The notes under the pieces: generated by a model
Told to the model about the DNA's origin: nothing
Database searches by the model: none
The model's input: the letters and a program-made list of their open reading frames with translations, nothing else
Assembly (NCBI GenBank): GCA_963662275.1
Contig: OY759316.1
Coordinates: 1,856,001-1,920,000 of the forward strand
Origin: Candidatus Cloacimonadales bacterium
GTDB taxonomy: Bacteria > Cloacimonadota > Cloacimonadia > Cloacimonadales > DAONDQ01
Length of the DNA stretch: 64,000 nt
Reading direction: 5' to 3'
Shown here: positions 7,108 through 30,098 of the stretch, in pieces
Numbering within the stretch: the stretch's first letter is position 1
How the letters are laid out: every line of letters starts with the position of its first letter
Made by a program: the position numbers and the translations under genes

Positions 7108-7673
7108 CCGAGACTGAACTGCTCACCAACTTTGTAAACCAGTACAGCAAACCCTTCACAGTGGATACGGCAGCCATGCTGACCGGGATAGCCAAAGATT
7201 CGGTCGCTCCCATCCTGAAAGAACTGGAAAAGCAGAAGCGGATTAATCGCATCTATGAGAAGCCAGAGGTGATTTATGTGCGTAATAACCGCTATAATAC
7301 CAGCCTGTGTGCCACCAATGACAAATGGAACCTTAACCTGTCGCAGGCGAATGAACTGCTCAACCTGCTGGAAAAGGGCAGATATACATCTCTGCGGGAT
7401 ATCGCAACAGAGATCGGCAGAAGCAGACAGTGGGTCTATATCTATCTGGAAGCTCTGGCATCCATCGAGTGCATTGACCTGCGTGGTTATGTGTATGTAG
7501 TCATCTCCCGCAAGAACCTGCCTAAACTCGGCACTAAGGTTACCAAGGGCATCTTGGGTGACTTGAGAAGTCTGAACCGGCTCGGTGGCTACCGGGACTT
7601 AAGAGAAAAACCTAAGAAAACAGATAAACAGAAACGCTCAGACTCAAAGCGAACCTATTTTATGATATTCTAA
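7104..7673 (+). CDS. Putative DNA-binding protein with two HTH-like segments
   Basis: ATGA overlap with the ATPase; HTH-like segments FTVDTAAMLTGIAKDSVAPILKELEK and TSLRDIATEIGRSRQWVYIYLEAL; basic C-terminal tail. Confidence 0.6.
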   Translation: MTETELLTNFVNQYSKPFTVDTAAMLTGIAKDSVAPILKELEKQKRINRIYEKPEVIYVRNNRYNTSLCATNDKWNLNLSQANELLNLLEKGRYTSLRDIATEIGRSRQWVYIYLEALASIECIDLRGYVYVVISRKNLPKLGTKVTKGILGDLRSLNRLGGYRDLREKPKKTDKQKRSDSKRTYFMIF

Positions 7674-7883
7674 ATGATCACGAGTTAAGCCATTTCTCAA
7701 CGTCTCATAAGTTTGAGTATTGCGCTTAATGTACATCTATCTAACTATTCACACAATTCATTACTATTAATCGAATCACACATTGGAAAGCTACTCGAGA
7801 AGTTGAACCGTCGCCATCCTAGCAATTTCTTATTGACTTTTCAATAGTATCAGCAGTATTTATTTCAGGAGATAAGATAAGTC

Positions 7884-10351: not shown

Positions 10352-13300
10352 TCAATCAGCAGTCGACAAATATCTGCAGCCTATACCTGTAATAATACTA
10401 ACTCCACCTGCCTGTGGGATTACTTGGATTTGATTTGTGATACGTTCTTTGATTGCTGGAACATGTGATATGATGCCAATTAATTTCCCTTCATTGTTTA
10501 ATGCGGCAAGATTTTCCAGAGCTATTTCTAAGCTGTCTTCATCCAATGAACCAAATCCTTCATCCAAAAACAGAGAGTCGATCCTTACTTTCTGGCTGGA
10601 CATCGCTGATAAGCCGAGAGCAAGGGATAAGCTGACAATGAAGCTTTCGCCACCTGATAAATTCTTGATAGTTCGAATCTCTCCGCCTTGGTAATTGTCT
10701 ATAATATTCAGTTCCAAGGAATCACTTTCACTATTAATTAGAAGGTAGCGATCAGATAGTTTTTGTAGTTGAGCATTGGCATGAGCTATGAGCATTTCAA
10801 AAGTAATGCCCTGAACAAAACCGCGGTACTTCTTGCCATCAGCAGAGCCAATCAAATCGTTTAGCATTTCCCAACGGGTAAGCTGCGATTTTTGCAGGTT
10901 AATTTGGTGATATTGCTCAGCTTGTGCGGTTTTTTGTTTATTATCTTCTTTCAGTTGCGCCTCGATGGTGCCACTTTCACGGTTTAATTGACTCATTTGT
11001 TCCAAAAGGGTTGCGGAGTAACTTTTAAGCTCATGCATTTCGCTTGTGGTAAGCTGCCTGGCGGTTTCAGTTTGTAGCTTTGTGTTGTTGTCATCGATCA
11101 GGGATTGAAGCCTGTTCTTCTCCTGATTAAGTTGTTCATCTCTATGGTTTAGCTCTTCAAATGTTTTCAGCGGCAGGATGGCTGCTTCAAAATCCTGAAG
11201 CGTAGTAAAGCCAGTTTGGGTAATGGCAGTTATAAATCCTGCACTGCTTAGCGTGTGCTGCTTCGTTGTTTCGCTAAATTGCTTCTCGGTTTTTTGCATG
11301 TTTTCCATTGCTCCTTGCAGATCAGAAGTGCTGGTTCCAAGCTTTAATTGCAGAGAGTTCAGAGTGGATTTTTGTTTGTTTAACCGCGTTATCCAGTTTT
11401 GTTCTTCGCTTTGCACATCTTTATCACCAAAGAGCTGTTGCCTCAGTCCAACTTTATCTTTTATTTGGGCTTGCATTGCCTCTATCTTCTGCAATATAGT
11501 TGCTGTCTGGTTGAGGTGATCTTGTGCTGTGGATTGCTTGGTTAACAATATTGTTTTCTTCTGGTTTAGCTCTGCTTGAAGCAATGCTTCATTATCTTTG
11601 TGCTTCTTCCAGTGATCCCTGGCAGTTTCCAGCATGGAAATAAGAGCTTTAGGTTTATCCAGATCAACCAGTTTCACATTCTGGGTATTGAGTTTGTTTG
11701 CTATGATTTGCTTTTCGGCAAAGATTTTGTCTCCCAAGTTGTTAACGGACTCAAAGCACCGATTATACTCCTCAGTAATGGCTTGCATTTCATATTCGAG
11801 ACCGAGCTTTGCTTGCTGCAATGTAGAAAGGCTTTGTTTTTTCTGATTATGCTCCCGCTCCAACGCTATGATTTCTTTGCTTAGCTTTTCTCCTTTGGCG
11901 ATGATTGCAGCCAGTTTTTGATTTTCTGTGCGATTTGTGGAAATAAGTTTTTCAATCTTAAAAGCAGAAAGCTCGCTCAGGGATAGCTTGAGTTGTGCAC
12001 ATAAGGTTACCAGGCTCTGCCGATTCATGGTATCTTTCGTTTCATGATCCTGCAATAGTTGTTTTTGGAACTGCAGCCTTGTGCGAGTTTCTGTATGATT
12101 ATGTTCCTTGGCTTTCAGTTCCATCTGGAGCTTATTGTAAATGATGTTAAGTTCTTGCATGTCTTCAGCAAGAATATTCGGCACTGACGTTCCAGTATCG
12201 GCATAGGGATGATGCAGTGCTCCACAGAGGGGGCAGGCTTCATTGTCTTTCAGCAGCTTGCGTTCATCTTCCAGATTCACTTTTTTCTGTGAGAGTACTA
12301 ATATGGCGTTTTTATCCTCGAGGCTTTGCTCGGTGGATGCCAATTCTTTATTAAGCACAGTGATTTCACCGTCAAGCTGTATAATAAGTGCATTATCTGT
12401 GCTTATCTGTTTATTCGTAATACTTATAGCGCTTTGGCTTGAGGTATGGGCATTGTATAGGTTTTGCAGTTCAATGAGCTTATTGGCATAGTCGCTAATT
12501 TCTTGCAGATTATTGCGATAGTACGTGATATCATGTTCACATAATAGATCTTCCAGGGATGCTGTTAGGTCATTTTTGCTGATTTGAGTGACAGAGAGAG
12601 CGCTCTGCATGGCTTCCATCTGTAGGATAGTATTCTGTAGTTCGGTTGCCTTGGCTTTATTATCAGCAGCTATAAGTTTGATCTTGGCTTTGCCCTGCTC
12701 CTTTTCCATATCTACTAAGCGCTGGAATTGGTCTAAAAGCAGCGGAAGAGAGCCCTCAAGCTCTGCGTCCTGTGCGTGTTTTTCCTGATAATCGTGCACG
12801 GCTTTAAGATTTTGTTCTGCAGTATTTATTTCAGCTTCGAGACCACTGATTTCTGTGGCAATACCTTGGTATTTGGTTTCTAAATCCCTCTTATCGTCCT
12901 GCAGGGTTAAAAGGGCACTTTGTTGGGTCTGGATCAGAGTGTCCAATTCTCTTACCTGAAGGAAAATCTTCTGATTAGTGGTATCTTGCAATTCTGCTGC
13001 ATTTACCAGTTCTTGTTGCTGTTGTAACTCGAGGGTAACAGACCTGGTAAGGATTTCCAATGTGGTAGTCTTTTCTTGGTATCCCTCAAAATCAGACTTA
13101 AGCTCTTCAAGACGCTTAGCAAGAGATTTTACATTACTGTGCTCCCCCAAAAGAGGCTGAGTTTTACGGGCATTTTCCAGATGTAAACGCTGGGGGGCGA
13201 AATCCTTGATCTGATCCTGCAGTGCGCATAGATTTGTCTTGCTCTCGCTAATCTCTTGGTTTAGACGCAGCAAATTTTCTTTCCAGGAGATCAGAGCATT

Positions 13301-14029
13301 GGCTTCCTCGATGTTTTGTTTCAAGCCCTTTTCTTGTGCGCCTAATTCCATCAGCCTGGCTTGCAGTTCACCGCATTCATCCTGGCTCAATACCTGATAG
13401 GCATTCACCAGTCCCAGTAATCTGCTAAGTAATTCCCGCTCGTGATTCCTGCGTTGAAACACTTCTACCGAAATTTTACTATATATATCTGTACCTGTGA
13501 TTTGCTCCAGAATGGTTGCACGCTCATTAATATCAGCTTTCAAGAAAACATCAAAACCACCTTGCGCCAAGAGCATGGAGCGGGTAAAACGCTTGAAATC
13601 CATGCCGGTGACTTCTTCTACCTTATCCTTCACAGTGACAATTGTACTGGCTATGATAGTAATTTCTTCTGCAACCAATGCAATTTCATGGCTGGGGTTT
13701 TGCAACTTTCCATCTACTTTGTTTCGAGCCTTTTTTTGACTCCAATGGCATAAATAGCTTCCTTGACTTGTCTCAAACTGAACTTCTGCAAAACAACTTG
13801 CCGTCTTGCGAGACATTATATCGTTTCCTGATTGATTTACTCGTTTCAGACGCGGTGTCTCTGCATAAAGGGCAAGACAAATTGCATCCAATATAGTAGA
13901 TTTACCAGCTCCAGTAGGTCCGATTATTGCAAATATTCCATTATTGACAAAGCTGGTATTAGTAAAATCTATCTCCCATTCTCCCTCCAAGGAATTCAAG
14001 TTTTGAAATCTCAGCTTTTGTATTCTCAT
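10352..14029 (-). CDS. sbcC: SbcC/Rad50-like SMC ATPase
   Basis: Walker A GPTGAGKS, long coiled coils, zinc hook CPLCG, signature LSGGESF, Walker B LFLDEGFG. Confidence 0.93.
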   Translation of the reverse strand: MRIQKLRFQNLNSLEGEWEIDFTNTSFVNNGIFAIIGPTGAGKSTILDAICLALYAETPRLKRVNQSGNDIMSRKTASCFAEVQFETSQGSYLCHWSQKKARNKVDGKLQNPSHEIALVAEEITIIASTIVTVKDKVEEVTGMDFKRFTRSMLLAQGGFDVFLKADINERATILEQITGTDIYSKISVEVFQRRNHERELLSRLLGLVNAYQVLSQDECGELQARLMELGAQEKGLKQNIEEANALISWKENLLRLNQEISESKTNLCALQDQIKDFAPQRLHLENARKTQPLLGEHSNVKSLAKRLEELKSDFEGYQEKTTTLEILTRSVTLELQQQQELVNAAELQDTTNQKIFLQVRELDTLIQTQQSALLTLQDDKRDLETKYQGIATEISGLEAEINTAEQNLKAVHDYQEKHAQDAELEGSLPLLLDQFQRLVDMEKEQGKAKIKLIAADNKAKATELQNTILQMEAMQSALSVTQISKNDLTASLEDLLCEHDITYYRNNLQEISDYANKLIELQNLYNAHTSSQSAISITNKQISTDNALIIQLDGEITVLNKELASTEQSLEDKNAILVLSQKKVNLEDERKLLKDNEACPLCGALHHPYADTGTSVPNILAEDMQELNIIYNKLQMELKAKEHNHTETRTRLQFQKQLLQDHETKDTMNRQSLVTLCAQLKLSLSELSAFKIEKLISTNRTENQKLAAIIAKGEKLSKEIIALEREHNQKKQSLSTLQQAKLGLEYEMQAITEEYNRCFESVNNLGDKIFAEKQIIANKLNTQNVKLVDLDKPKALISMLETARDHWKKHKDNEALLQAELNQKKTILLTKQSTAQDHLNQTATILQKIEAMQAQIKDKVGLRQQLFGDKDVQSEEQNWITRLNKQKSTLNSLQLKLGTSTSDLQGAMENMQKTEKQFSETTKQHTLSSAGFITAITQTGFTTLQDFEAAILPLKTFEELNHRDEQLNQEKNRLQSLIDDNNTKLQTETARQLTTSEMHELKSYSATLLEQMSQLNRESGTIEAQLKEDNKQKTAQAEQYHQINLQKSQLTRWEMLNDLIGSADGKKYRGFVQGITFEMLIAHANAQLQKLSDRYLLINSESDSLELNIIDNYQGGEIRTIKNLSGGESFIVSLSLALGLSAMSSQKVRIDSLFLDEGFGSLDEDSLEIALENLAALNNEGKLIGIISHVPAIKERITNQIQVIPQAGGVSIITGIGCRYLSTAD

Positions 14030-15264
14030 TTTGCTTCCTCCGCGTTGGGATCACTCTCTGATAGCATTTGCATAATTTCGTTATAGCAGTTTCGCAGTTC
14101 TAATGATTGAGGTTCATCAATCCCATGCTTTTGAAGGCAGCGTTCAAAAACTTGAATCGTACTGAGATCATCCAAACTCTCATTCAAAGCAGTAGCTGAA
14201 AGTGCCCTACGCATTATACGTTCATTTTTCAAACGTAAAAGCTCAACATCAGTACCAGAAATAATAGACTCAATATCTTCTTTGAGAGATGGTAGAATTT
14301 CATCGCCTGTATAGTAGACTTCAATCCAACATGGTTCACCTTGTTCAACAATCAAATTTAGCTCACTTAAAATTGCGTCCCAGTTACCTTCTATGCTCAA
14401 AAGTCTATTATTCTGTGGGATAGTAATCGGATTGACTGTGGTTTGGGTATCAGAAATATCAATAATTAGCACCTGTTTTTCGTGATCAGCTTCCTTAAAA
14501 CTTAGAGGAAGAGGTGAACCGCTATAACGCAGATTATCCCTACCTTTGATTATTTGCTGTGAATGCAAATGCCCCAATGCGACATAATTGATCTCTGCGG
14601 GGAAAAGGTCTGCCGGAACATACAACAGATTTCCAATATATAGCTCTCTGACTGCTTCCCCTTCTTGTAAGCAGCCTCCAGAAGCAAAGAGATGCCCCAA
14701 TGCAACGATCGGTGGATGGTTTTTGTCTTTTGCTTGAACATCAAACGCTATACTAAAGACATCTTGATAATGTTTAGTGATCCCTGCAAGTAACTTCTGT
14801 TCTTTTTGCTCAATGGATTCATAGGCTTCTATACTACGGATATCGCGTTCTCGGAGGTATGGTACCGCACAAACAATCAAAACACATTTGCCTTCTGCAT
14901 TCTTTATCAGCAAAACCTCATCCGAGGGATTTTCAGTCTTACTTCCTACAACGTGAATTCCCAAGTGCTTAAGCAACCCGCCAGGGGCATTTAAAAAAGT
15001 GGGAGAATCGTGATTGCCACCGATTATGACAATATTTTGACAAGAAGTTTGTTTCATCTGCCACAAGAACTCGTAATACAACTCTTGAGCCCTGCTTCCC
15101 GGCAACGCAGAATCAAACACATCACCAGATACCAAGAGCACTTCTATTTGCTCAGTATTAATTGTGCTAATTAACCAAGATAAGAACTCCCGCTGTTCTG
15201 CATAGCGTTTGTGTCCCATCAAACTGATACCCAGATGCCAATCAGATGTATGTAGAATTCTCAT
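14026..15264 (-). CDS. sbcD: SbcD/Mre11-like nuclease
   Basis: Phosphoesterase motifs HTSDWHLG, GDVFD, GNHD, LGHLH; 4-bp overlap with sbcC. Confidence 0.93.
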   Translation of the reverse strand: MRILHTSDWHLGISLMGHKRYAEQREFLSWLISTINTEQIEVLLVSGDVFDSALPGSRAQELYYEFLWQMKQTSCQNIVIIGGNHDSPTFLNAPGGLLKHLGIHVVGSKTENPSDEVLLIKNAEGKCVLIVCAVPYLRERDIRSIEAYESIEQKEQKLLAGITKHYQDVFSIAFDVQAKDKNHPPIVALGHLFASGGCLQEGEAVRELYIGNLLYVPADLFPAEINYVALGHLHSQQIIKGRDNLRYSGSPLPLSFKEADHEKQVLIIDISDTQTTVNPITIPQNNRLLSIEGNWDAILSELNLIVEQGEPCWIEVYYTGDEILPSLKEDIESIISGTDVELLRLKNERIMRRALSATALNESLDDLSTIQVFERCLQKHGIDEPQSLELRNCYNEIMQMLSESDPNAEEAK

Positions 15265-15394
15265 ATTCTCTCCATTAAAATAAGCATTGAATTCATCTGT
15301 AATCCATAAGATGTATTACTCTTTTTTCTTTATCATATAGAAATTATAGATCCAATCGATTAATCCAATTTGATTGATTACTTATGACAATTCA

Positions 15395-17509
15395 CTAATT
15401 GACATCCAGACATAGTTTAACAGCCAGTTCCTTACTAATCTCTACTGGAGTACTGTTTTTCAGTCTTTTTAATATTGCTTCGATAGATTTATCTTTCAGC
15501 CAGTATTGTAGATACTCGTGAAGTTGCATCTCAAGTGGAAGCATCATTTGAAATATGGATTGTGCAGTGGTCTTATCAAACAATTTATGGAAGATATCTT
15601 CGTATTCTAAAGGATTATCAGGGAGTGACGCCCATGATAGCGGAGAACTTATGGTCATCGATATGTCATCAGTTTCAAATTCAAAATGACCTGCTTCCAA
15701 TGCTATTGCTCTATTGACTATCTTACCACCAAAAGTGTAATAACGGATACTACCCAGGGATTTTACATATGGGATCGACATCAAGTTTATTGTGTCATGG
15801 GCAACTTTCCGTAATGCATCAAAATAGGAGCAAAGTTTTGGTTCTATAAACTTAAAACAATCAGAATCTGAGTTTAGCATTCTCCAGGTGCGGTCGACAA
15901 TAAATGGGTCAATACAAATTTTGCCACCTGGATACATAAAATCGATTGGATTTCTTCTATTTTCAGTAGGATCAAGTGTTATGGAATCCGGAGAAATTTT
16001 CTTTACGATCCAATATTTACCATGAAAGCGAACAACACTACCCTTATGCAACTTAATTAAGTTAATCTCTGGTACTTCTCCCAGATTCTTAGCCCCATGC
16101 TGAATCCTAATGGATTTTGATCCTAAGCTGAAGTTTCCATAGATCATCCGTAAGTCAACAAGCTGGAACAGTTTCTCGTAAGCCGCATACTTGTATTTAT
16201 AATCGTGTTTAAGGACATACTCTTTATCAGCCAATTCAGAAAGAAGAGAGTCAAGTTTAGGTCTATCAAGATAAGAAATATAACGCACAAGATCATTTAA
16301 ATCAGCAACTTTTACAAATTTTCCTTCATTTGCAGCAATGATACTTAAACACTGTTGTGTTAAAGCACCATACAATTCATAAGGTGTCCTTTGGGAAACC
16401 TCTCCATTAATAGAGCAATCGGTTAAAACACAGAACTTTAAAACATCTATCATTAGCTTCTTACTTGTATCAGGAATCAGGCATATGACATTTACTTTGT
16501 TGGACCTTCTGTTTCCTCTCCCAATTCTTTGCATAAATGCTTCAACACTACTTGGAACATCCCAAACTATTACTGCATCTATATCTCCAATATCAATACC
16601 TAATTCTAGGGTACTTGTCGCAATGCATATCGCTGAGTTTAAAGACGCAAATTTCTCTTCAGTCTCGATGCGAACTTGTTGAGATAAAGATGAATAATGC
16701 ACTAACAATCTTTGTGACAGCATCGTTGATTGACTCAAGCATGAGGCAAGACGCTCACATTCTTTTCTGGAGTCGGCAAAGACCAACAGCTTCAGATTAT
16801 TGCCCATCATGAGCCTTTCAATTAACTGCCGGAACTCTGACAAGTGCCTAACATGTCTTATTTGACAATCAATCATTCTTTCAGATGGGTAGTTAAAGAA
16901 ATCTGCTTTTTCCGTAGAACCCATCAAAAAGTCGCGGACACAAGACACATCACCAATTGTTGCAGAAAGTGCGGCCCATTGAATTGGCTGACCTACTAAA
17001 CCCATTAAACGGTGTAGAAGAATCGATAACTGCAACCCACGTTGCGTATTGTATAGTATATGAACCTCATCCAAGATGATAGCTTTTACAGTTTGAATAC
17101 ACTTTTCTTTTCTAAAGAGAAGAACGTCGAGTGATTCTGGAGTAGTTATCAGGATATGTGGTTTTTGGCAAAGGACAAGATCATCTCGATCTCCGTGCCT
17201 AATGCCAACCTTGAGACCAAGGGAAGCGAGAGGAATTGATAATCGTTTTTCAAGGTCATTGACCAGGGCTTTTGTAGGCGAAATGTAAATCAGAAACAAC
17301 TCATTGTTTGTGATTGCATCAATCCAGAACCTACTTACAATAGGGGCAACTACTGCTTCAGTTTTCCCTGAGCCTGTCCCTGAAGTTAGCACTATATTCC
17401 TCCCAGTCACTAACGGTTCTATCACCGCTTCTTGAGAAATACGTATTGAACAAAAACTGCCGTAAAAAGCAGTTGCTACTCTTTTGTCTAACAGATCTAC
17501 TGATCTCAC
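15395..17509 (-). CDS. Lhr-like DEAD/DEAH-box helicase (BrxHI/SngC-like)
   Basis: GTGSGKT, ITTPESL, DEVH, SAT, TSTLELGIDIG, QRIGRGNR; GTG start overlaps upstream stop. Confidence 0.85.
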   Translation of the reverse strand: MRSVDLLDKRVATAFYGSFCSIRISQEAVIEPLVTGRNIVLTSGTGSGKTEAVVAPIVSRFWIDAITNNELFLIYISPTKALVNDLEKRLSIPLASLGLKVGIRHGDRDDLVLCQKPHILITTPESLDVLLFRKEKCIQTVKAIILDEVHILYNTQRGLQLSILLHRLMGLVGQPIQWAALSATIGDVSCVRDFLMGSTEKADFFNYPSERMIDCQIRHVRHLSEFRQLIERLMMGNNLKLLVFADSRKECERLASCLSQSTMLSQRLLVHYSSLSQQVRIETEEKFASLNSAICIATSTLELGIDIGDIDAVIVWDVPSSVEAFMQRIGRGNRRSNKVNVICLIPDTSKKLMIDVLKFCVLTDCSINGEVSQRTPYELYGALTQQCLSIIAANEGKFVKVADLNDLVRYISYLDRPKLDSLLSELADKEYVLKHDYKYKYAAYEKLFQLVDLRMIYGNFSLGSKSIRIQHGAKNLGEVPEINLIKLHKGSVVRFHGKYWIVKKISPDSITLDPTENRRNPIDFMYPGGKICIDPFIVDRTWRMLNSDSDCFKFIEPKLCSYFDALRKVAHDTINLMSIPYVKSLGSIRYYTFGGKIVNRAIALEAGHFEFETDDISMTISSPLSWASLPDNPLEYEDIFHKLFDKTTAQSIFQMMLPLEMQLHEYLQYWLKDKSIEAILKRLKNSTPVEISKELAVKLCLDVN

Positions 17510-18693
17510 ATTGATTCCTGAAACAGATCGTCGAGAGCTTCCACAACTTTTATGATTACATTTCTGACCCTATCCTGAATTTGAACAGCAGCAGCTTTTC
17601 TAACAACCGATTTGAGCTGTGAATCCAACATTATGGTATCAGGTTCCCAATCATATGCAATACCATGTACATCAAAGATTAATAGTGATAGCTCCTCAAG
17701 TTCAATTGTTTGCAATGGACTCATTTCATAAATAGGTAGTTTATCGAATCTAGCGTAATCAAAATCCCACCTTTCCTTCCTCAGTAGAACGCCTTTGCAC
17801 TTTTCAGCAAATTCAGGTGTCACGGCATAGAAAGTTTTTCCAGGGAATAATTTCCCTGAATAAAAATGGAAAAGATTCCAAAAAGCAGTTTCTTGAAATC
17901 TAATATTCCTAAGGTTTGTGATAACATCTTCAAACTCGTCAAAAAGAACAATGAATCCACTTAGCCCAGACTGTTTGCACAAAGTATTAATATCTCTAAG
18001 GATTGCCCAACTCTGTTCATGCCCGTTTTTGTTCATCACAAAAACGTCATCATCGTAGAATTTCCAATCCGGTCTGGGGTCTCTGAAATAAATCCGCAAA
18101 TCAGTGACCAAAGTCTTAAATAGTATTCTTCTCTGACTATTATAAGCTGATGGTTGGTAAAACCAATCCATTATTGTTTCTTGAACTGATTCAATTCCTG
18201 TTGCCCAAGCTCTTATTGCTACATACATTGCCTTAGAATCAAGTACTTCAGAATAATCCCATTTACCATTATTGCACAAATTTTTAAAGTACTCATTATC
18301 AGCTAGTCCTTGATTAATTTTCTTCGTGAACAAATCAAATAAAAGTGATAGTCCCTTATAGTTTTGTAATCCTGGTATTTGGATATTGCGGCATACAGCA
18401 CCAAGAATCTGATCCATACGATTAAATCGGACTGCTGAGTTAGCATCTAAAGTAACAGAACTTACAGCATAGTTCTTTTCTAAGGCTTCTTCTCGAATGA
18501 ATTTCAATAAATGTGTTTTCCCTGAGCCATAGTTTGCCTTTAATAAAAGAACTGTACCGTTGTGTGTATTTAGTCTCTCTGAAAGATCATTAATCTCATG
18601 TTTGCGTCCTACAGTAAAATGCCTTACAAATCCTTCCGGAGGGATACCATTACGAAGCGATTCGATAATAATCTGTGCTTGTTGGGTATTCAT
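17506..18693 (-). CDS. BrxD-like P-loop ATPase (DUF2791 type), copy 2
   Basis: N-terminal IIESLRNGIPP...VGR, Walker A variant ANYGSGKT, Walker B VLFDEFE. Confidence 0.8.
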   Translation of the reverse strand: MNTQQAQIIIESLRNGIPPEGFVRHFTVGRKHEINDLSERLNTHNGTVLLLKANYGSGKTHLLKFIREEALEKNYAVSSVTLDANSAVRFNRMDQILGAVCRNIQIPGLQNYKGLSLLFDLFTKKINQGLADNEYFKNLCNNGKWDYSEVLDSKAMYVAIRAWATGIESVQETIMDWFYQPSAYNSQRRILFKTLVTDLRIYFRDPRPDWKFYDDDVFVMNKNGHEQSWAILRDINTLCKQSGLSGFIVLFDEFEDVITNLRNIRFQETAFWNLFHFYSGKLFPGKTFYAVTPEFAEKCKGVLLRKERWDFDYARFDKLPIYEMSPLQTIELEELSLLIFDVHGIAYDWEPDTIMLDSQLKSVVRKAAAVQIQDRVRNVIIKVVEALDDLFQESM

Positions 18694-18698
18694 ATCAC

Positions 18699-19967
18699 CT
18701 ACTCGTTTCTTAAACGCTCCATAACATCGTCGTAGAGCTTTTCTGTGGGTCTAACTTCTCCCTCGAGATGATCATCAAAATCAGCTATCATGGAAGAAAC
18801 CAATAATCTCCAAAACCTGATACCTGCTAAATGAGAATGTTGCTGGAATAAATCAAGGACACGTTTTTCGACAGCAGTATCCTCAGGTAGTAAGTCAGAA
18901 GCTTCAGGGAATGCACTTATGTATATTTTTTTTATTTTAATTGCTGCCTCTTGATAGTCTTTTAGCTCAGTTTGTACAGCATCAAGATTCCATATCGTAT
19001 CCAAGGCTCTTGGATATCTATTGTCGTCTGGCTTTCCTATTCTTCCAGATAATGCTCCATATATCACAATTCCAAACTTAGGATCTGAGTAAAAGTCAGG
19101 GGTCGTCGCATATATCAAAAACAAACCAGGAAGAGATTCAATGTTGTTTATTAATGATAATAGATTGTTATGAGCTTCTCTCAATACTGATTGACGCATT
19201 ACTGAATAAGCTTGCTCAGCTTCATCAAATAGGATCAATAATCCCTTGTAACCTGATAATCTGACAAATCCTGCCAATGATTGTAGCATGATCTTAGCAT
19301 TATCTTTTGTAATCAATTTACTAACACCAAATTGCTTTCTATATACTCCAATACTCCCTTCTCCACAAAACCATTGCAGTATTTCACCACGAGCTTGTTC
19401 CACAATGGATTCATCTGGAGCTTCAGGTAAGAACGTTTCCCAATACTTCTTAACCATTTTCTTAAAATCGATATCAATACTATGATCAGCCATTAACTTT
19501 TCAGTTGCCTTTTGGTAGTTATCATAGGATATATTGCTTTCTGTGGAGTGTACTCCTGTCGATAGCCAAGCTAATGATTCTCGAATTACTGTTCCGAATG
19601 GAGCAATTTCATTTATACAGTTACCGGCATAGTACGATGGAGTTGCTACCATCCTTACTATTGCTGCAAAGACACTTTGGAATTTATTTAGAGCTGCGCT
19701 ACTCTTTTCAAGTTCTACATTTGAGACTAGGCAGTTGTTCTGCAAAGCAAGTTCCCTCAACTGGCGGAAAAAATGTGTTTTTCCAGAACCCCAAGAACCA
19801 CTAACAAATCTGATAATGCCATGATTTGACATACCGGAAAAATGGAATCGTTTGATTCCATCCATAATTTTCTCATTACCCACTGAGTATAAATCAACGC
19901 CTTTTTGCGGAGGAATTCCGGTACGTAATGATTCAACTACCTGGGATGCAATATTCTGATTACTCAT
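18699..19967 (-). CDS. BrxD-like P-loop ATPase (DUF2791 type), copy 1
   Basis: N-terminal VVESLRTGIPP, Walker A GSWGSGKT, Walker B ILFDEAE. Confidence 0.8.
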   Translation of the reverse strand: MSNQNIASQVVESLRTGIPPQKGVDLYSVGNEKIMDGIKRFHFSGMSNHGIIRFVSGSWGSGKTHFFRQLRELALQNNCLVSNVELEKSSAALNKFQSVFAAIVRMVATPSYYAGNCINEIAPFGTVIRESLAWLSTGVHSTESNISYDNYQKATEKLMADHSIDIDFKKMVKKYWETFLPEAPDESIVEQARGEILQWFCGEGSIGVYRKQFGVSKLITKDNAKIMLQSLAGFVRLSGYKGLLILFDEAEQAYSVMRQSVLREAHNNLLSLINNIESLPGLFLIYATTPDFYSDPKFGIVIYGALSGRIGKPDDNRYPRALDTIWNLDAVQTELKDYQEAAIKIKKIYISAFPEASDLLPEDTAVEKRVLDLFQQHSHLAGIRFWRLLVSSMIADFDDHLEGEVRPTEKLYDDVMERLRNE

Positions 19968-20791
19968 AGTTTCTCCTTAAAAATCATAAAACCAATATAT
20001 CCCCGAGCGGCTGCACCACTTAAAAGGATGCCTTGGTTTGTATCTTTTGTTTGTTGCAAATCAATAGCACGACCATCTATTTCAAAAGGACCCTTTTCAG
20101 CTAAGTATGACAGATCAGTAATGAACTCATCCATACGAAATCCCTTGTCTTTCTTTCTTAGAAGCTTGGTTATATCTTTGATTGGTACACTCGAACCATC
20201 CGGCAAGTGTTCTTTATTTATAATGTACTTATAGTTAGCCCGTAATTGTTTGAGAAAATTACTGCCATGAAATCTTCTGCCAAAAACACGAGTATATTCC
20301 TTTCGGATGATTTCAACAACAGCTTCAATATCTGCAGGTATTTCTGCTAATTTACCTTCATTGTCAATAAGTCTCGCCATGCGTTTAGTTTCGAGTATTT
20401 CCAGTCGAAAAAAACCATTTTTGATACCGTATTTAGGATGAGGGCTGTTCACATCCAACAAAATTCTGGATGATTTACACGCTTCATCAAGTAGCGACGG
20501 ATAACGCCTAAATATCCTATCCGCATCTTCTTTCGCAAGTCGGTATGCCTCTTCTAAATAATTCAGTTCAAGAGGTTTATCCAACCGCATCTTTTTTAGT
20601 CGTTCTGCTTCACGATCAGCCAATGTTAAGAAGTGCATTGACCACCCCTTAGACAGACAATCTAACAAATCGGTGAATAACCGCTCTCTTTTAAAGGTCT
20701 CCTCAGTTTCAGCTTTTAGCTTTTGGTATTGTTCACTTAAACTATTCTTAAGCTGTCGTACTGAGTTAATAATGTCATTATTAAACTCCAT
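19964..20791 (-). CDS. Hypothetical protein (275 aa) coupled to brxL and the BrxD-like pair
   Basis: Start overlaps the brxL 3' end by 11 bp; stop overlaps the next ATG by 4 bp; GGAG RBS; helical N-terminus; no recognised family motif. Confidence 0.75.
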   Translation of the reverse strand: MEFNNDIINSVRQLKNSLSEQYQKLKAETEETFKRERLFTDLLDCLSKGWSMHFLTLADREAERLKKMRLDKPLELNYLEEAYRLAKEDADRIFRRYPSLLDEACKSSRILLDVNSPHPKYGIKNGFFRLEILETKRMARLIDNEGKLAEIPADIEAVVEIIRKEYTRVFGRRFHGSNFLKQLRANYKYIINKEHLPDGSSVPIKDITKLLRKKDKGFRMDEFITDLSYLAEKGPFEIDGRAIDLQQTKDTNQGILLSGAAARGYIGFMIFKEKL

Positions 20792-22868
20792 GTTTTGCTC
20801 CGTCTATTTGTAATTCATGCTGTTTTACATACGTCACTTCAAAAGCCCGACAAAGTCTATACCTTTGATTTCTGTTAGTAATCGCAAAGGCATCTTTGTA
20901 ATCATACTGCTGAAAGATGTCGAGTCCTCTACCAAGGATTATCTTCCAGCCTGTATCAGTTTGGATGTAGCGGTCATGTATGGATTCATCGTATTCATAC
21001 GTGAAGAGGATACCCATTGCGATACATGACTCCTGGATTTGTTTAAGGAAAGAATCCTGCTGAGAATCGTCAAAGTCACTGGGTTTGGTTAACAGGTGCA
21101 CTTCAACCTCATCAGCATCTGATTTTCCGAGAGCAATAGTCTCCATCAGTTCCATCAGGTTCTTGGACTGATAGAAGGCACTGATGTAGGGGTCTTTGAT
21201 TTCTAACTTAGTTGCTCCCTCCAGATACTTCCCGAAAAGCTTCTTATAAGATATTCCACTTTGGTTCTCTTTGATGACTATATTCCCTGCTTTGAGAATA
21301 AGCGTTTCTGGCGCATCTTTCTGCTTGGGTTGAGTATTTTCACCAGATACGGGTTCAGTCGCCAAAATGGGCGTTAAATCGTCCTCTGTTTCGGGAATTT
21401 GAGCATTATAGTAAAGCGGATATTGAATCTCCTCTGTGGTTTTCACAAAATACAGCTTTTGCTCTTTATCAGAATAGGCAAAACGCACCGGTTCATAAGT
21501 GGTGTCAATTCGCATAAGCTGGTCTTTGACTCGTTTCCTGCCTTCCATAGAAAATTGAAGTAATTCTTCAATTTCTTCCTTTGAAGCTTTTTGATTGGGA
21601 TAGATAACTTTCATCAACCCGGAGAATGTCTTTTGCACACCATCCCGGTCACGAGTCGAGATATCTGAAACGAGATCAAAGTGCTCTTTATACAATTGCG
21701 AATAATCAGAATTACGAAAAGCTCTTAGTATCTCTGCCAGATAATCCACTACAAACCCATAACCATCAGAGAACATCTCTCCTCTGATTATTGGCACTTC
21801 CCAACCGGGCAGATAGCCATGCAACCTATCAAGAAAGGCTGAATCATAGTACTTTTCGGGCAGCTCGTCAAACAGGTCAGAGTTCTTCAGCATGTAAGCT
21901 ACATTATGGCGTGTATTGCCCACAAATGTCATCGAAGCTTCTGCACCCAAGGTTTCGATACCTCTGGAGAAGGTCTTATTTGCCATATAGTTTTTCATGA
22001 TGTCCACTAAGGCTTTATCCACCGTCTTTTTCTTTCCGGCAAATTCATCAAAGGCAACCACATCCCAATAGCCTACCAGTCCGATTCTGCCATTGGAGTT
22101 ATTCACGAATAGCTTAGGAACAGACACTTCTCCACCTGAGATCAAAATCCCATGAGGAGAGAACTCAGAATAGATATGTGATTTTCCGGTACCCTTAGGT
22201 CCAAGCTCTATTAGGTTATAGTTTCTTTCACAATACGGCACCAGACGTGTAAGCTGCATTAGCTTCAATCTGCGGCTCATGGTTTCAGGGTTGAAGCCGA
22301 TACTCTGGATTAGCAGGTCTATCCACTCATCAGAAGTAAATTCTGTCCGCTTTTCCAGGAAGGCATCCATATCAAATTTGGATAGCTGCACTGGCTTTAT
22401 GGAACTCATTATCCAAGGGACGCTGTTCTTATCCTCAGTATAAACGTATTCAAGCTCTGAGATGCACCAGACACCGCTCACTAAGAGCTTCGGGTGCTTC
22501 TTTATAGTGTCAGAATCAACTACGACCTTACTGATACCCAGGCTGGAAAATGAAGCTTCATAACAGTCGTTTTTATCATTCAAAGATACGGAAATTTTAT
22601 CTATGACTTTATGCCTGCCCTTTTCCTTGATGATGGATTTGATAAGACCAGCTTCATTGCGATGCACATAATGCTTGGCAAGGATATCTTTGACTGTGTC
22701 GATGCCTGCCAAGATAGTCGCTTCGTCAGATGATGCACAGTATTGCCCAAGAAGGTATTCCAAAACGTATGTCGGGACAATTGCATTACCCTTTACGGTT
22801 TTGACTAAGTCTTTCCTGACTACCAAGCCCTGAAAGTGTTCATTGATTTTCTCATCCAATTTGGTCAT
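20781..22868 (-). CDS. brxL: BREX BrxL AAA+ protein with C-terminal MIT-C/PLD-like domain
   Basis: Likely start MTKLDE at 22868; VPTYVLEYLLGQYC, Walker A GPKGTGKS, VAFDEFA; C-terminus DPYI...IHDRYIQTDTGWKIILGRGLDIFQ. Confidence 0.85.
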   Translation of the reverse strand: MTKLDEKINEHFQGLVVRKDLVKTVKGNAIVPTYVLEYLLGQYCASSDEATILAGIDTVKDILAKHYVHRNEAGLIKSIIKEKGRHKVIDKISVSLNDKNDCYEASFSSLGISKVVVDSDTIKKHPKLLVSGVWCISELEYVYTEDKNSVPWIMSSIKPVQLSKFDMDAFLEKRTEFTSDEWIDLLIQSIGFNPETMSRRLKLMQLTRLVPYCERNYNLIELGPKGTGKSHIYSEFSPHGILISGGEVSVPKLFVNNSNGRIGLVGYWDVVAFDEFAGKKKTVDKALVDIMKNYMANKTFSRGIETLGAEASMTFVGNTRHNVAYMLKNSDLFDELPEKYYDSAFLDRLHGYLPGWEVPIIRGEMFSDGYGFVVDYLAEILRAFRNSDYSQLYKEHFDLVSDISTRDRDGVQKTFSGLMKVIYPNQKASKEEIEELLQFSMEGRKRVKDQLMRIDTTYEPVRFAYSDKEQKLYFVKTTEEIQYPLYYNAQIPETEDDLTPILATEPVSGENTQPKQKDAPETLILKAGNIVIKENQSGISYKKLFGKYLEGATKLEIKDPYISAFYQSKNLMELMETIALGKSDADEVEVHLLTKPSDFDDSQQDSFLKQIQESCIAMGILFTYEYDESIHDRYIQTDTGWKIILGRGLDIFQQYDYKDAFAITNRNQRYRLCRAFEVTYVKQHELQIDGAKHGV

Positions 22869-22881
22869 GTTTACCCCTTGA

Positions 22882-25377
22882 TTAAAAATCAAAATCCGAT
22901 GTGAAAGAGCGTCTCAAAGTATAGCTCTCGGTTTTGTATATCTGGAATTTGTTTGTTCCCGGTATCGGTTTTTCCAGCCTTAGGATTACATCCTGATTAT
23001 TAGCTTTTTCTGCCTTTCTTGACAGCATCAGCTTACAGGTTATTTCTCGTTCTCTGGGACTATCAGATGTGTAATTAAACGAGATATTCTTTTCTTCTGA
23101 AATCAACTCATCTTGCTGATTGTAAATCCCAATCCGCAGATTAATAGGCTGCAATTTATCGCTAATCGGTTCTTTCTGGTAGAGATTTATGACTAACTGC
23201 CCGGCTGAGATGATCCTTCCACTACTGCTAATGATCTCGACAGTAACAAAATCGACATCACTTACCCGTTTTTTATTGATCTTCAGCACAGGGATAGTGA
23301 TTTCCTGTAATGATGCTCCACCATGCACATACCTACTGCCGGAGCCACTCAACCTCATTCTTTGATTCCCTCTCGGAATGAGAGCTTCTATAGAACCATC
23401 TAAGCCCAATTGCTTTGACTTGAAGTGGATTAAAGAAGGATTAGCTTTCAATTCCTTTCCCAAGATAAAGCGTCTATCTTTATACAAGACTTGTCCTGAG
23501 ATTGTATCCTCACTCAGGAAGTCACTGGTATCCAGTTCACTATGTTGGTAGAGGAAACCATGATCAGCAGTAATTATGATATTGTTGGCATTGCCGGAAG
23601 TAAGCTTACGAACCACATCTATCAGCTCATATAGAGAGGCTTCCACCGCTTCAAAGACCTTTGTTTCAGTAGGCAGTTTATCACCCATAGCATCAATTCT
23701 ATTATGATAGATATAAATTACATCATATTCCCGATAGAGCTTCTTGCTTTCATCCGAAGTCTTTGCCAAAACCTCATCAACAGTCATAATCAGCGTTCTC
23801 TTGGGAAGGTATTTGTCCATTATCTTTGCCCGATTCTCTCTTCCACTGCTATTCATGCCATCTACTATTACGTTCCCGGTCACATCATCAGAAATAGATA
23901 ACAACTGATGCGGTAGCAGAGCAGCCATTCCCAGTTGAGTATAGCTCGGAATCATACCCAGCGTAGCTTCTAATTCAGCTTCATATCTATCTTCCTGACG
24001 GATCAGGCTCATCAATTCAGTGGCTATTTCATAACGCAGAGCATCAGAGATTATCACGAATATCTTTTTGTTTGTCTCCAGATATGGAGTAATCTGCCTT
24101 TTCCAGAAACTGCTTTGAGGATAACTCTCAGTAGATCTCCATTCATTAGCATGATATACCTGCTCTGACCATAATGTGTTTAGCTTGAGCAGATACTCAT
24201 TTACATACTTGTTTTCAATCTGCTCATACAGATCGTTTAGTAAAGTTCGTTGTTTAGCCTGGCTGAAATGATAGATAAACTTACGATAGAAGAAGTCAAT
24301 TTTATACCACTCAGAGGTATAATATCGGATTCCATCCTGCATAGAATTGATTTGATAAAAGCTTGTTTTGATTAATGTCAGGAACTTAGCTGCCGCATCA
24401 AGGCAATCGTATTCATTGGAATAATCATCATACCAATGACTCATCATTCGCTGTCTTATTATAACCTCAGTTTCTCCTGTGGTAATAGTACCTTCATTAA
24501 TGAATTTGGTCAGCTCTGAGAGGATTTTACGTTCGATTAGTTCAAAGTAGTCAATGTCCAGCAGTTCTTTCAGTCCTCTTTTGTTTAGGTCGTTTTCTAT
24601 TCCTAACCATTCAGAGCAGTTTTCAGATAGAACTCTGAAAGCTCTTTTATGATGGATATTATCTTTCCATCGCTTTAGCAGGTAGATGGCTTCTATATTC
24701 AGCTTGGCTTTTTCATCAAATCCGGACTGGTAACATGCCTTGAAAAGCTCATAGGTAAAGTCTTTCACACTCGATTCACCGGACTCATAAGCAAGTAGCT
24801 TTTTTATCTGTTCCCATAAGAAAGTGCCGAGTTTGGCTTTTTGTATGAGGTTGTACTTCTCGCTTTTACTCAAAGCACATTCAGATAGCAGATTCATGAT
24901 TACTTCATCCCATCTGGCATCAGAACCGGCACACACAGCCAGCATTTTCCACATAATCTTGTTTTCTGTATCATCTGCAGAGAGCATCTTCTTGAGAGCT
25001 TCTATTCGTTTTGCTGAGGTAAAGAACTCCGTATGTTGTCTGGGAATATCAATAAACTCACGTCCCAATCCAAGTTCTGAAAGCCATAATGAAGGTTGGT
25101 CTATCTTTAGCTCTGCATTTGACAGCAGGATATCAGCCAACCAGTTTTCTTCAATAGAAGGTTTTATTCCTGCATTATACAATAGAAACTTGGCTTCTGG
25201 TTCGGATATCAGGACTCTGTACTTGATTCCATACTCGTTATTATCGATTACGATTCTTTGGATATCAGGTAAGTCAAAAGTATCAAAGTCAAAACGAAAT
25301 TCTTGATTCTCATCATACCAGAAGATGATGCGATGCTTGTCAAAGTGGCTTTTGATGATATTGGTTATTCTATCCAC
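22882..25377 (-). CDS. pglZ: BREX-1 phosphatase PglZ
   Basis: RIIFWYD N-terminus, IISDALRYE, PSYTQLGMAALLPH, TADHGF, YVHGGASLQE. Confidence 0.92.
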   Translation of the reverse strand: MDRITNIIKSHFDKHRIIFWYDENQEFRFDFDTFDLPDIQRIVIDNNEYGIKYRVLISEPEAKFLLYNAGIKPSIEENWLADILLSNAELKIDQPSLWLSELGLGREFIDIPRQHTEFFTSAKRIEALKKMLSADDTENKIMWKMLAVCAGSDARWDEVIMNLLSECALSKSEKYNLIQKAKLGTFLWEQIKKLLAYESGESSVKDFTYELFKACYQSGFDEKAKLNIEAIYLLKRWKDNIHHKRAFRVLSENCSEWLGIENDLNKRGLKELLDIDYFELIERKILSELTKFINEGTITTGETEVIIRQRMMSHWYDDYSNEYDCLDAAAKFLTLIKTSFYQINSMQDGIRYYTSEWYKIDFFYRKFIYHFSQAKQRTLLNDLYEQIENKYVNEYLLKLNTLWSEQVYHANEWRSTESYPQSSFWKRQITPYLETNKKIFVIISDALRYEIATELMSLIRQEDRYEAELEATLGMIPSYTQLGMAALLPHQLLSISDDVTGNVIVDGMNSSGRENRAKIMDKYLPKRTLIMTVDEVLAKTSDESKKLYREYDVIYIYHNRIDAMGDKLPTETKVFEAVEASLYELIDVVRKLTSGNANNIIITADHGFLYQHSELDTSDFLSEDTISGQVLYKDRRFILGKELKANPSLIHFKSKQLGLDGSIEALIPRGNQRMRLSGSGSRYVHGGASLQEITIPVLKINKKRVSDVDFVTVEIISSSGRIISAGQLVINLYQKEPISDKLQPINLRIGIYNQQDELISEEKNISFNYTSDSPREREITCKLMLSRKAEKANNQDVILRLEKPIPGTNKFQIYKTESYTLRRSFTSDFDF

Positions 25378-25385
25378 TTTAGTTC

Positions 25386-28300
25386 CTACTCCTCGCTCTT
25401 ATCCAGCCCAGGAATCTTCTTCAAGGCAGTACCGAATTTAGCATAGTTCACTTTCACTCCATCGTCCAGATCTATTTCTATCTTGGCAGCAGCCAGGTTG
25501 AAGATAACATTTCTTTCCCAGTTTTCGAGTTCAAGGATAGTAGCGGTGATCTTTTCCAGTTCTTTGCCTGCGATGATTTTATCTCTCTGGCAAGTGGAAG
25601 AGCTGATAATCTGATGTTCAAGATCAGCTTTCTTGGCATTGAGCTTAACCACAAATTCCCTTAAGTAATCGTTCAGGATAATTGAAGCCGTGTCAGGTGT
25701 GTAGCGGTGCATATAGATCAGGGCATTAAAACTGTCTTTGGGGCTGCTGAACAGCCAATAAATAGGTCTCTTCTTATAGCGTTTGATGTGGTCATTATAG
25801 AAATCCTTTAGGAAGTAGGAGCGCAGATCTTTGCCAATAGCTTCTTCAATGAACTGCAGATTCTGGCTGAAATTACTGTATCCAAAAGTAACCTTCAGGA
25901 ATTCCTTAAATCTCTCTACGATATCATCGGTAAACCACTCACCATCCAGAATGGGAATTACGTTGTCCTTATCCGGTATGAAGCTTGGATTAGGGACTTG
26001 CTTCAGATAATCATCTATAGTCTCTCCCTGATTAGCAAGGATCAACCCCGGCTTGTCTATTGAATATCTGCCAAGCATACATCCTAGAGCATAGGAAATA
26101 TACTCCTTCATAGTGTCGGATAGTAAGTCTGCTTCTAACTTTTCGTTTAAGGGAAATTCCTCTTTGAATTCTTGATTTGCTTCTTTAGAATAGCGATAGT
26201 AAGGATTGCAAGTAAGAGTGATTTCTTTGAGTGGAACGTCGGGAGAAAATTCGTTCTGTAGACCATATGCTTCTATGAAGATGCCGTTATTCTCTTCTTC
26301 TAAGCAATGCATTTCGATAGTATTATCTATCCATTGCTTTCTAAGATCAAAGTAAACTTCTTTTACAGACATTTGATCTAAATTCAACATCATTAAAAGA
26401 GGTGATCTTGTAAAGTTCCAGGAGGTTTCAAATGAATCCCAGTCTTGCTTAGAGACATTTAATAATAAATTGCTTAAATGGTCTATATTCCTTTTATTGA
26501 CTATGATTTTACTCTCTAACCATGGCAACGAGCCAACATTACCTACCTGAAAATTAAGAGTGGGATTAAGTATTTTCAAGAAGTTGAAGACTAATTTAGA
26601 GCACAAATAGGCAGACAATACCAATTGATAATCAGCTTTTTTTAAAAATGCTGAGCACCCCCCCATATCAAACAAAAACCCCGGATCAGATACTCTGACT
26701 CCAAAATAAGAAGAGCTCACGAACGACCATGTAATCGATTCTTTGTAATAGAAATTTTGAGACCTAGCAAAAGCCCTGCCGTTCGTAATTACATCATATC
26801 CATCATTTCCCCAATTGATAACGTACTCATTGTTGCCAAACCATTTTCGAAAAGAGCCTCCTTTGTTGTAAGGAAACCACTTATTTTTGCTTAAGATAGC
26901 GTCATTTTTACATGTATAACCGAATCCTGTTTTGGCATGACTCACCTCAAACCATAGTCTCAAAAATTGATCATTATCTCCCGTAGTCATACCACATACA
27001 ACGTTAGCAATATCAGATACTTTATCGGAATTTGCATAAATACTTCTAACTCTTTCGCTGACCCAATATGCTATAGGTGTTCCAGGAATATTAATAAAGT
27101 CAGAAGAAGAAGCCACAGCTAATCGACTGTTTTTGACTGGAAATTCTTTCGGAGTATTATTTTCATCTAAATCTTGGCAACTTAAATAGGAATAAGACCC
27201 TTTGAAGTTTGGATTTAAGAACTTTTGCCAAACTGTTGCAGATGTTCCAAAAGCTATACCCATAACCATATTATCCATGTGAACCATGCATTCAATAGTG
27301 TAATTATCTAAGAGATGACTTCTAAGTTTTTCGTATGAAGAAAGAAACATCCAACTTTGCATTGTTACTAATGCACAAAAGCCTCTATCTAAAACAAGTT
27401 CCAAACAGCGTTGAATAAACATTGCAAACAAATCTGATTTAGCTAACGGATAATTAGTTTTGGCAAAATCACTCAAGGTGTTATTCATCCCCTTACTTCC
27501 CATGTAAGGAGGATTTGTGACTACGATATGGTATTTGGAATTGAGATAATCTGCTTGTCTCAGGATTTTTACCACTGCTTTATGGGTTCCATAATACTCA
27601 GTATCATTGACTATCTCATTGTTATCTATTAACATGTTATAAGTTTCAACAACGTTGGTATCAGCAGGTACAATCAAAGAACCATATGTATTCGTTTCAG
27701 TAAATTGTTTCAGAGTGGTTTCCAGCTTTGCTGAAAAGACATCGTAACCAATCTTACGCATGTATTTATCAAGTTCATCTTCTGCTATGCTAACACTCGC
27801 CAAGACGCAAATGTTAGGTTCAATCTTCCGATTAAACCACAGCTTATCTTTGGCACGTGCTTTCATTGTCAATGCAAAGGCAGCCAATTCGCCAGCACGT
27901 TCATCGATTTCTATTCCAAAGAGATTGTTCTTAATGATCAATTGAGGAATCTCTACCAGATTAAAGCCATCTTCTTCATACATCGCATAGAGCAAGTCAA
28001 AAGCATAAGTAAGAACATGACCGCTCCCACTACAAGGGTCACAGAAACGAATCTCTTGTGGAGTATTTATTTTATGATAAGCAGTTTCAGATTGCTCTGC
28101 CTTTATGTAGTAACGCATGTTTTCCGATAAACTTGAATTCGCATGATTCAGTATCCACAATCTACCCAATGAATTCTCAACCATGAATCGTACAATCCAA
28201 TGGGGAGTAAATATCTGAGTGGCAGAAGGGATATCTTCGCTTTTTATCTTAATATTCTTACTTAAATCTTTAAAGACCTCGTCTTTCTTTTCTGAAATAT

Positions 28301-28913: not shown

Positions 28914-28926
28914 ATTTTCTGCCCCT

Positions 28927-30090: not shown

Positions 30091-30098
30091 ACCTTACC

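Follow-up and report, generated by a model that had tools for sequence, protein, structure and literature searches.

The window analysed here, a stretch of 64,000 nucleotides from a Candidatus Cloacimonadales bacterium (assembly GCA_963662275.1, contig OY759316.1, positions 1,856,001 to 1,920,000), contains a cassette of four genes that encode, in this order, a 275-aa protein of an unnamed family (ORF275, from open reading frame), two different AAA+ ATPases and a helicase of superfamily 2 (SF2). The reading that we favour, with somewhat better than even confidence, is that this conserved and mobile cassette is an anti-invader machine for helicase loading, with a heteromeric loader, which is related to the Shango system and to the BrxD-BrxHI pair of bacteriophage exclusion (BREX) systems and is appended here to a BREX type 1 (BREX-1) operon within a transposon. 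The genes lie as follows:

19964..20791, reverse strand: ORF275, 275-aa protein of an unnamed family (open reading frame call)
18699..19967, reverse strand: ATPase 1, 422 aa, BrxD/SngB-related AAA+ protein (profile matches, motif alignment with BrxD and SngB)
17506..18693, reverse strand: ATPase 2, 395 aa, Orc1/Cdc6-like AAA+ module without winged helix (predicted structure, conservation)
15395..17509, reverse strand: SF2 DEVH helicase, 704 aa, GTG start, BrxHI/SngC/Lhr-related (profiles, motifs, tree)

In that order, the first two genes overlap by 4 bp, the ATPase genes are 5 bp apart, and the last two again overlap by 4 bp. An initial annotation, made from the letters of the window, had already described four tightly linked genes with these spacings, and frames, lengths and junctions came out identical on re-reading. 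Each gene is present as a single copy in the host genome.

Gene order and distribution

Is this arrangement more than a chance neighbourhood? When genomes were scanned with ORF275 as the anchor, 39 loci were obtained, which span many bacterial phyla and one archaeon; all three other genes are present in 34 of the 36 informative ones (those with 3 kb or more downstream, 3 loci being too short), the exceptions being a locus without the helicase (L025) and another without all three partners (L035). In a metagenome scan anchored on ATPase 2, from which the best 80 of 187 relatives were kept, ORF275 and ATPase 1 were found in 63/64 loci with room upstream, the helicase in 68/68 with room downstream, and the complete cassette in 58/59 with room on both sides (37 of the 38 clusters at 90% identity). 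The grouping is not due to chance, since the order recurs in 34/36 and 58/59 informative loci, and the view of the four genes as a conserved, self-standing unit is thereby supported. The comparison of synteny with and without BREX that the initial annotation had proposed thus returned a near-obligate four-gene order, mostly free of BREX. Some copies look interrupted (L012, L028, L031 and L037), and in one of them, in a complete Egbenema genome (L031, 11329-16673), the cassette is broken by two IS66 transposase genes. Directly upstream of another copy (L097, 1437-5828) there is a 1463-aa reading frame combining RNA polymerase beta-prime domains with many tetratricopeptide repeats, which may be real or a misassembly.

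The same gene order is also found in a distant subfamily, present in six genomes of one family (6/62; loci L129-L134). It consists of an ORF275-like gene (profile E 1e-13 to 1e-19 in searches of single sequences), an ATPase-1-like gene, an ATPase-2-like gene whose product has about 60 extra N-terminal residues (no Pfam match), and a helicase of 517-531 aa, about 180 aa shorter than that of the window.

The distribution of the cassette is patchy, mobile and of the defence-island type, as supported by several observations. Full-length ATPase 2 is found in only 3 of the 232 genomes of the host phylum, and not in a genome of the same genus that is 99% complete. Among the loci of the genome scan, the closest named relatives come from Cloacimonadota, which makes this the likely phylum of the host. 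Within one cluster, copies that are at least 90% identical lie behind McrBC with a type I restriction-modification system, behind PglZ-BrxL and behind SIR2-HerA, and the presence of near-identical copies behind different defence systems implies that the cassette moves between islands. Of 72,556 plasmid records, 2 carry the cassette: one carrier is a 27-kb plasmid of Desulfomonile tiedjei in which no BREX core is annotated, and the other is cyanobacterial (Tolypothrix/Aulosira), with the cassette placed after a BREX type 6 (BREX-6) operon that possesses its own brxD-brxHI. As for viruses, there was no cassette locus among the matches listed in viral contigs, which hold 7 related stretches, and none in 50,697 phage records.

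With regard to the neighbourhoods, 57 non-redundant loci have at least 3 kb of flank, and a BREX or BREX-related (DUF499) core adjoins 11 of them, the cassette standing after brxL, between pglX and pglZ (L034, L089 and L118), after brxHI or on the opposite strand. In L089 (3-15966), an Old nuclease and a HEC-05-like gene share with the cassette the space between pglX and pglZ. The remaining 46 loci have no BREX core within the fetched flank, a figure that refers to the flank and not to whole genomes. By hand count, a recognisable defence gene is near at least 22 of the 57 loci, those 11 included; the neighbours in the other 11 are GmrSD, a cyclic-oligonucleotide-based anti-phage signalling system (CBASS), two Eco57I-type enzymes, a type III CRISPR (clustered regularly interspaced short palindromic repeats) locus, a type II methyltransferase, a type I restriction enzyme, DruE, a prokaryotic Argonaute (pAgo), a type IV restriction enzyme and a GajB-like helicase. 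This count is a lower bound because the neighbours were scanned in part (Pfam was run on 136 proteins, including 9 of the window, and PADLOC on 97 of 159 metagenome neighbours, all with strict thresholds).

These neighbourhoods bear on two other explanations. Could the cassette be a genome-maintenance machine, for repair, replication restart or the resolution of R-loops and stalled transcription, that mobile islands merely carry? Lhr helicases, to which the cassette helicase is related, act in repair; no effector domain is present in the four proteins, housekeeping genes surround some of the loci, in the window the helicase gene is followed by sbcD-sbcC, and the occurrence of the distant subfamily in six related genomes (6/62) would be compatible with such a role. 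However, the rarity of the cassette subfamily of the window in its phylum (3/232), the movement of near-identical copies between defence systems and the insertions inside BREX operons between pglX and pglZ speak against it, and an sbcD-like gene follows the cassette in only one other examined locus (L013). We consider this explanation unlikely.

The second explanation, to which we grant slightly less, makes the cassette an accessory of BREX, either a plug-in helicase module or a backup for when the BREX core is inhibited, which would need a BREX-like partner. In agreement with it, the 11 adjoining cores are of several types and the cassette often lies within the operon; BREX loci are known to take up auxiliary effectors, according to the accessible text of PMC12839542; and in the window the cassette overlaps brxL and has no strong promoter-like site upstream. 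A search for a promoter of its own gave no signal above chance, the best upstream site scoring 9/12 and the upstream region holding 10 promoter-like sites where 21.3 are expected by chance. Nevertheless, the 46/57 loci without a BREX core in the fetched flank and the Desulfomonile plasmid without annotated BREX speak against such a dependence, as does the copy in Tolypothrix/Aulosira: the cassette is not a simple substitute for brxD-brxHI, since the BREX-6 operon there has its own pair.

The two ATPases, ORF275 and a possible loading mechanism

The initial annotation spoke of BrxD-like ATPases and an Lhr-like helicase, and the profiles agree. On the Pfam family BrxC_BrxD (PF10923), ATPase 1 reaches 159 bits and ATPase 2 82 bits; both match BrxD and SngB of PADLOC, ATPase 2 mainly across its first 135 residues, and with the NCBIfam BrxD model NF033438 (125.6 and 64 bits, respectively) neither attains the cut-off of 350. 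The helicase matches PADLOC BrxHI (4e-90) and SngC (3e-70), as well as Lhr-type NCBIfam models below their cut-off. Its motifs are intact (GSGKT, DEVH, SAT and QRIGRGNRR), and across 30 helicase sequences GxGKT, DExH and SAT are invariant and the arginines of motif VI are kept in 29-30/30. As also noted initially, the two ATPases are clearly divergent, with a mutual identity of 25%.

In what sense, then, are the two ATPases unequal? The initial annotation pointed to a variant Walker A in ATPase 2, ANYGSGKT. The motif is indeed there, but it is not degenerate, because it is the norm of the family and fits the P-loop pattern: among 81 non-redundant ATPase 2 sequences, A53 and N54 are each kept in 80/81 and G56, G58 and K59 in 81/81, and the usual pattern is [AG]x4GK[ST], so that the site reads as an ordinary Walker A. 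A degenerate Walker A in ATPase 2 is thus ruled out by its family-wide conservation. In both proteins Walker A and Walker B are intact (K63 and D248-E249-x-E251 in ATPase 1; K59 and D252-E253-x-E255 in ATPase 2), and these residues are invariant in the 81 sequences and in 71 non-redundant ATPase 1 sequences; a C-terminal arginine at the presumed sensor II position is invariant too (R387 and R377, respectively).

The functional inequality appears to lie at the putative arginine finger and not at Walker A, a conclusion supported by the alignments. In ATPase 1 this candidate finger is R309 (codon 19041-19043), within the motif L-x-x-R-I between sensor I and strand 5, and its position is an arginine in 70 of the 71 sequences; in the equivalent region of ATPase 2, the top arginine column reaches 49/81. 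The motif is kept in 5/5 SngB, 5/5 BrxD and 5/5 distant ATPase-1-like proteins, and is absent from 5/5 distant ATPase-2-like proteins, although the alignment in that region is poor. In general, the arginine finger of an AAA+ protein acts on the neighbouring subunit, and the accessible text of PMC13326643 describes BrxC as using arginine fingers in trans within a back-to-face dimer. With intact Walker A and B and R377 and no conserved finger of its own, ATPase 2 would need the finger of a partner for hydrolysis. By the same motifs, ATPase 1 would activate both itself and ATPase 2, and ATPase 2 would end the chain. It is conceivable that ATPase 2 is an independent sensor or regulator with no partner in a heteromer, ATPase 1 and the helicase acting like BrxD or SngB systems; no motif of the single-ATPase systems is missing from ATPase 1, and the identity between the two ATPases is only 25%. 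The combination of an invariant Walker A, Walker B and R377 with the lack of a conserved finger argues against this, as does the finding of ATPase 2 without ATPase 1 and ORF275 in just 1 of the 64 loci with upstream room, and we regard it as quite improbable.

The predicted structure of ATPase 2 (predicted local distance difference test, pLDDT, 87.8) has as its best match the archaeal Orc1 chain 2qby_B (Z 15.1, root-mean-square deviation 3.2, 236 aligned, chain residues 18-267), followed by another Orc1 match (Z 14.8) and by TnsC (Z 13.7), clamp loaders and BrxC at Z 11-14. The model stops at residue 395, which corresponds to Orc1 residue 267, the end of the Orc1 AAA+ module, so that there is no fused winged helix after the lid.

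A winged helix is predicted elsewhere in the gene set, at the end of ORF275. This protein has 115 close homologs and 323 representatives at 50% identity, and its AlphaFold2 model (pLDDT 93) consists of long N-terminal helices (residues 5-107), a small beta domain with a helix (113-170) and, at the C-terminus, a winged helix (172-275; window 19967-20278), with mean column conservations of 0.30 for the variable long helices, 0.49 for the beta domain and 0.51 for the winged helix. Residues 172-275 resemble many winged-helix domains, those of Orc1 and Cdc6 among them, at Z 5-6.4, a non-specific resemblance, and the middle domain, folded within the whole protein, has weak matches to the C-terminal part of T4 MotA (Z 4.9-5.3). 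Sequence comparisons have been less informative: at E ≤ 0.01, ORF275 has no match in PADLOC, Pfam or NCBIfam; a Pfam scan of 120 homologs supported no family (the best matched 4/120); the PDB sequences gave chance helical matches and nothing else; and the ESM Atlas returned unnamed clusters with no usable named match. ORF275 was also considered as a form of SngA, the first protein of Shango, and this was rejected, its profile scoring at most 1.1 bits on 5 SngA and hhalign to their last 200 residues giving a probability of 1.4%. The initial annotation had cast the 275-aa protein as a sensor or adaptor; the predicted C-terminal winged helix favours a DNA-binding or adaptor role, and the unspecified sensor less so.

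Taken together, an Orc1-like module without winged helix in ATPase 2 and a predicted winged helix in ORF275 suggest a split loader, in which the winged helix is supplied in trans. The process would have four steps. ORF275 would bind DNA, or an abnormal DNA structure, and recruit the ATPases, providing in trans the winged helix that Orc1/Cdc6 carry in cis. ATPase 1 would give its arginine finger to the next subunit and hence stack on itself and on ATPase 2, which would receive a finger without being able to donate one and hence cap a short open oligomer. This assembly would load or activate the helicase, which would then unwind or stall replication or transcription intermediates of the invader or, alternatively, expose DNA to nucleases of neighbouring systems such as PglZ. 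A more far-reaching version, which we put forward tentatively and hold to be possible rather than probable, is that of a split, heteromeric bacterial counterpart of ORC-Cdc6 (ORC, origin recognition complex) devoted to immunity: the winged-helix adaptor would nucleate a self-limiting oligomer of ATPase 1 and ATPase 2 on invader DNA and so load an SF2 helicase, and the cassette would protect alone and could also be plugged into any BREX type, as a DNA-opening motor or as a guard against BREX inhibitors.

Several points weigh against the anti-invader loader. The count of 22/57 loci with defence neighbours stands without a random-locus baseline, L001, L016, L019 and L036 lie among housekeeping genes, and the restriction of the distant subfamily to six genomes of one family fits vertical inheritance. 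The effector step is a guess, because recognisable nuclease or toxin domains are absent from the four proteins and the examined loci revealed no conserved fifth gene. Likewise, none of the four has a methyltransferase or nuclease family match (Pfam, E ≤ 0.01), and none of 2037 candidates of 1233-3520 aa, queried with residues 330-704, is a long helicase-nuclease fusion, which is weak evidence. As regards the ATPases, R309 is called an arginine finger by motif position alone, and ATPase 2 keeps K298 (74/81) and R161 (81/81), either of which could act in trans. Finally, a Foldseek search of ORF275 against the PDB gave nothing at E ≤ 0.001, the resemblance to winged helices is generic (Z 6.4 at best, none at Z ≥ 8), and a winged-helix fold, here a predicted one, does not by itself demonstrate DNA binding.

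The split of the catalytic residues is also what makes the proposed loader amenable to experiment: since they are distributed unequally between the ATPases (K63, E249 and R309 in one; K59, E253 and R377 in the other), single mutations can test helicase loading. Named cultured carriers exist, namely Desulfomonile tiedjei DSM 6799 (plasmid), Tolypothrix PCC 7101 and Aulosira NIES-50, which makes the cassette experimentally accessible; in Desulfomonile the four proteins are WP_014813311-314. Furthermore, the label 'BREX system ATP-binding' is given to cassette proteins also in places without a BREX gene, which can mislead BREX typing.

The BREX-1 operon and the transposon around the cassette

The initial annotation had left out two features that surround the cassette in the window:

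20781..34829, reverse strand: complete BREX type 1 operon (brxA, brxB, brxC, DUF1016/YhcG, pglX, pglZ, brxL; NCBIfam, Pfam and PADLOC)
3443..35610, no strand: Mu-type transposon, 32 kb, with the cassette, BREX-1, sbcCD and a helicase gene of the archaeo-eukaryotic primase (AEP)-TOTE kind (target duplication, inverted repeats)

The last gene of the operon, brxL (20781-22892), overlaps ORF275 by 11 bp. PglX (1356 bits) and type A PglZ (793 bits) score above the cut-offs of the NCBIfam BREX-1 models, and BrxA, BrxB and BrxC are matched by the Pfam families of these names. Two other BREX types were considered and rejected. Against BREX type 2, there is no PglW-sized reading frame in 8000-35000, and PglX and PglZ fail the BREX-2 models; against BREX type 6, PglX (344 bits) and PglZ (86 bits) stay below the required 900 and 400 bits, respectively, and ORF275 has no match in NCBIfam, which includes a BrxE model. 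At the C-terminus of BrxL (20781-22892) an MIT_C phospholipase-D-like domain replaces the Lon-like domain, which makes it the HKD variant mentioned in the accessible text of PMC12839542. Between brxC and pglX there is a gene for a DUF1016/YhcG PD-(D/E)XK nuclease (28927-30090), possibly an auxiliary BREX nuclease.

The transposon is delimited by a 5-bp target duplication, CCTGT (3438-3442 and 35611-35615), and its ends are inverted repeats matching in 25/30 bases, whose termini do not begin with TG; Mu transposase C-terminal and AAA_22 matches are found at 4311-7107. The GC content at third codon positions is lower in the cassette (0.30-0.33) than from brxC to brxL (0.37-0.45), which suggests that the cassette may have joined separately. 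Other cargo includes an sbcD-sbcC pair (10352-15264) downstream of the helicase gene, named from sequence motifs, of which the host genome has no second copy at E ≤ 1e-8, and a 681-aa reading frame on the opposite strand to the cassette (8306-10351) that combines an archaeo-eukaryotic primase domain of the TOTE system with a ResIII helicase and whose N-terminus may be missing or split because the Pfam match starts at model position 59. Near 36495-36645 lies a short repeat (60-120 bp) that matches the genome at 37 or more other places.

Comparison with known systems

The initial annotation recognised no described system in these genes, and none matching was found in the libraries and papers searched: the PADLOC check that it had suggested yields related matches (BrxD, SngB, BrxHI and SngC), but no catalogued system fits the cassette, and no publication naming a two-ATPase cassette was found in the literature searched, which reaches few subscription journals. 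The comparison set consisted of five Shango loci and five BrxD-BrxHI loci (three of type 2 and two of type 6). In quick trees, which omit five cassette loci to save time and in which long branches meet (as the tool warned), the 5 SngB form a clade of their own (Shimodaira-Hasegawa-like approximate likelihood ratio test, SH-aLRT, 100), as do the BrxD, and neither clade contains ATPase 1 or ATPase 2, the deep branching of the ATPase tree being weakly supported (73-85). In both subfamilies, the helicases of the cassette are split from BrxHI and SngC with a support of 100, which the same long-branch warning covers.

Shango is the closest in organisation: a stand-alone mobile operon with an accessory gene, a PF10923-type ATPase and then an SF2 helicase of the same group, without any named nuclease. 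In the accessible text of its descriptions (10.1101/2022.11.11.516204, 10.1101/2022.05.11.491447), it comprises the TerB-like protein SngA, the ATPase SngB and the helicase SngC, and acts against phages with modest protection. It differs from the cassette in having one ATPase instead of two, both of which fall outside the SngB clade; in its first gene, TerB-like SngA (about 650-1020 aa), whereas the 275-aa ORF275 has no TerB match; and in its helicase, since that of the cassette matches SngC (3e-70) yet falls outside its clade in the quick tree with its long branches.

The BrxD-BrxHI pair shares with the cassette a BrxD-like ATPase of the ORC/Cdc6 clade directly before a BrxHI-like helicase, the best PADLOC matches and a recurrent linkage to BREX. 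According to the accessible text of Rakesh and Krishnan (PMC12839542), BrxD stands alone as an ORC-Cdc6 ATPase that has an arginine finger and lacks a DNA-binding domain; it is suggested to load BrxHI, and its role is called uncharacterised; SngC, BrxHI, DruE and DpdJ are placed in one antiphage helicase clade in that of Tuck et al. (PMC12278908). Unlike this pair, the cassette has an extra ATPase and ORF275, its ATPases stay below the BrxD cut-off and outside the BrxD clade, its helicases form a separate clade, it is mostly BREX-free, and it coexists with a true brxD-brxHI pair. A plasmid locus of Deinococcus psychrotolerans (L141, 3599-8392) may be another stand-alone variant: its 451-aa protein resembles a coiled coil and is accompanied by a single ATPase of the BrxD clade and a helicase of the BrxHI clade, and neither TerB nor BREX genes are annotated in that stretch.

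Two further comparisons concern the loader and the number of genes. Orc1/Cdc6 and ORC, the heteromeric AAA+ helicase loaders, resemble the cassette in the fold of ATPase 2, in having unequal paralogous subunits and in a winged helix within the gene set; in the cassette, the predicted winged helix is on a separate protein, and an SF2 helicase would take the place of the ring helicase as client. TnsC nearly equals Orc1 as a match of ATPase 2. MANTIS / Gao_RL (10.64898/2026.09.23.753747), going by the accessible part of its description, is also BREX-related and made of four genes, an AAA+ ATPase and a helicase among their products, but it has a methyltransferase and a helicase-nuclease, neither of which is matched in the cassette. 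The accessible parts of the literature consulted do not establish the mode of action of Shango or of the BrxD-BrxHI pair. Without a TerB protein and with its helicases in a separate clade, the cassette is neither Shango nor a BrxD-BrxHI pair; judged by its sequences, it is a third, unnamed branch of the Shango/BrxD-BrxHI ATPase-helicase group.

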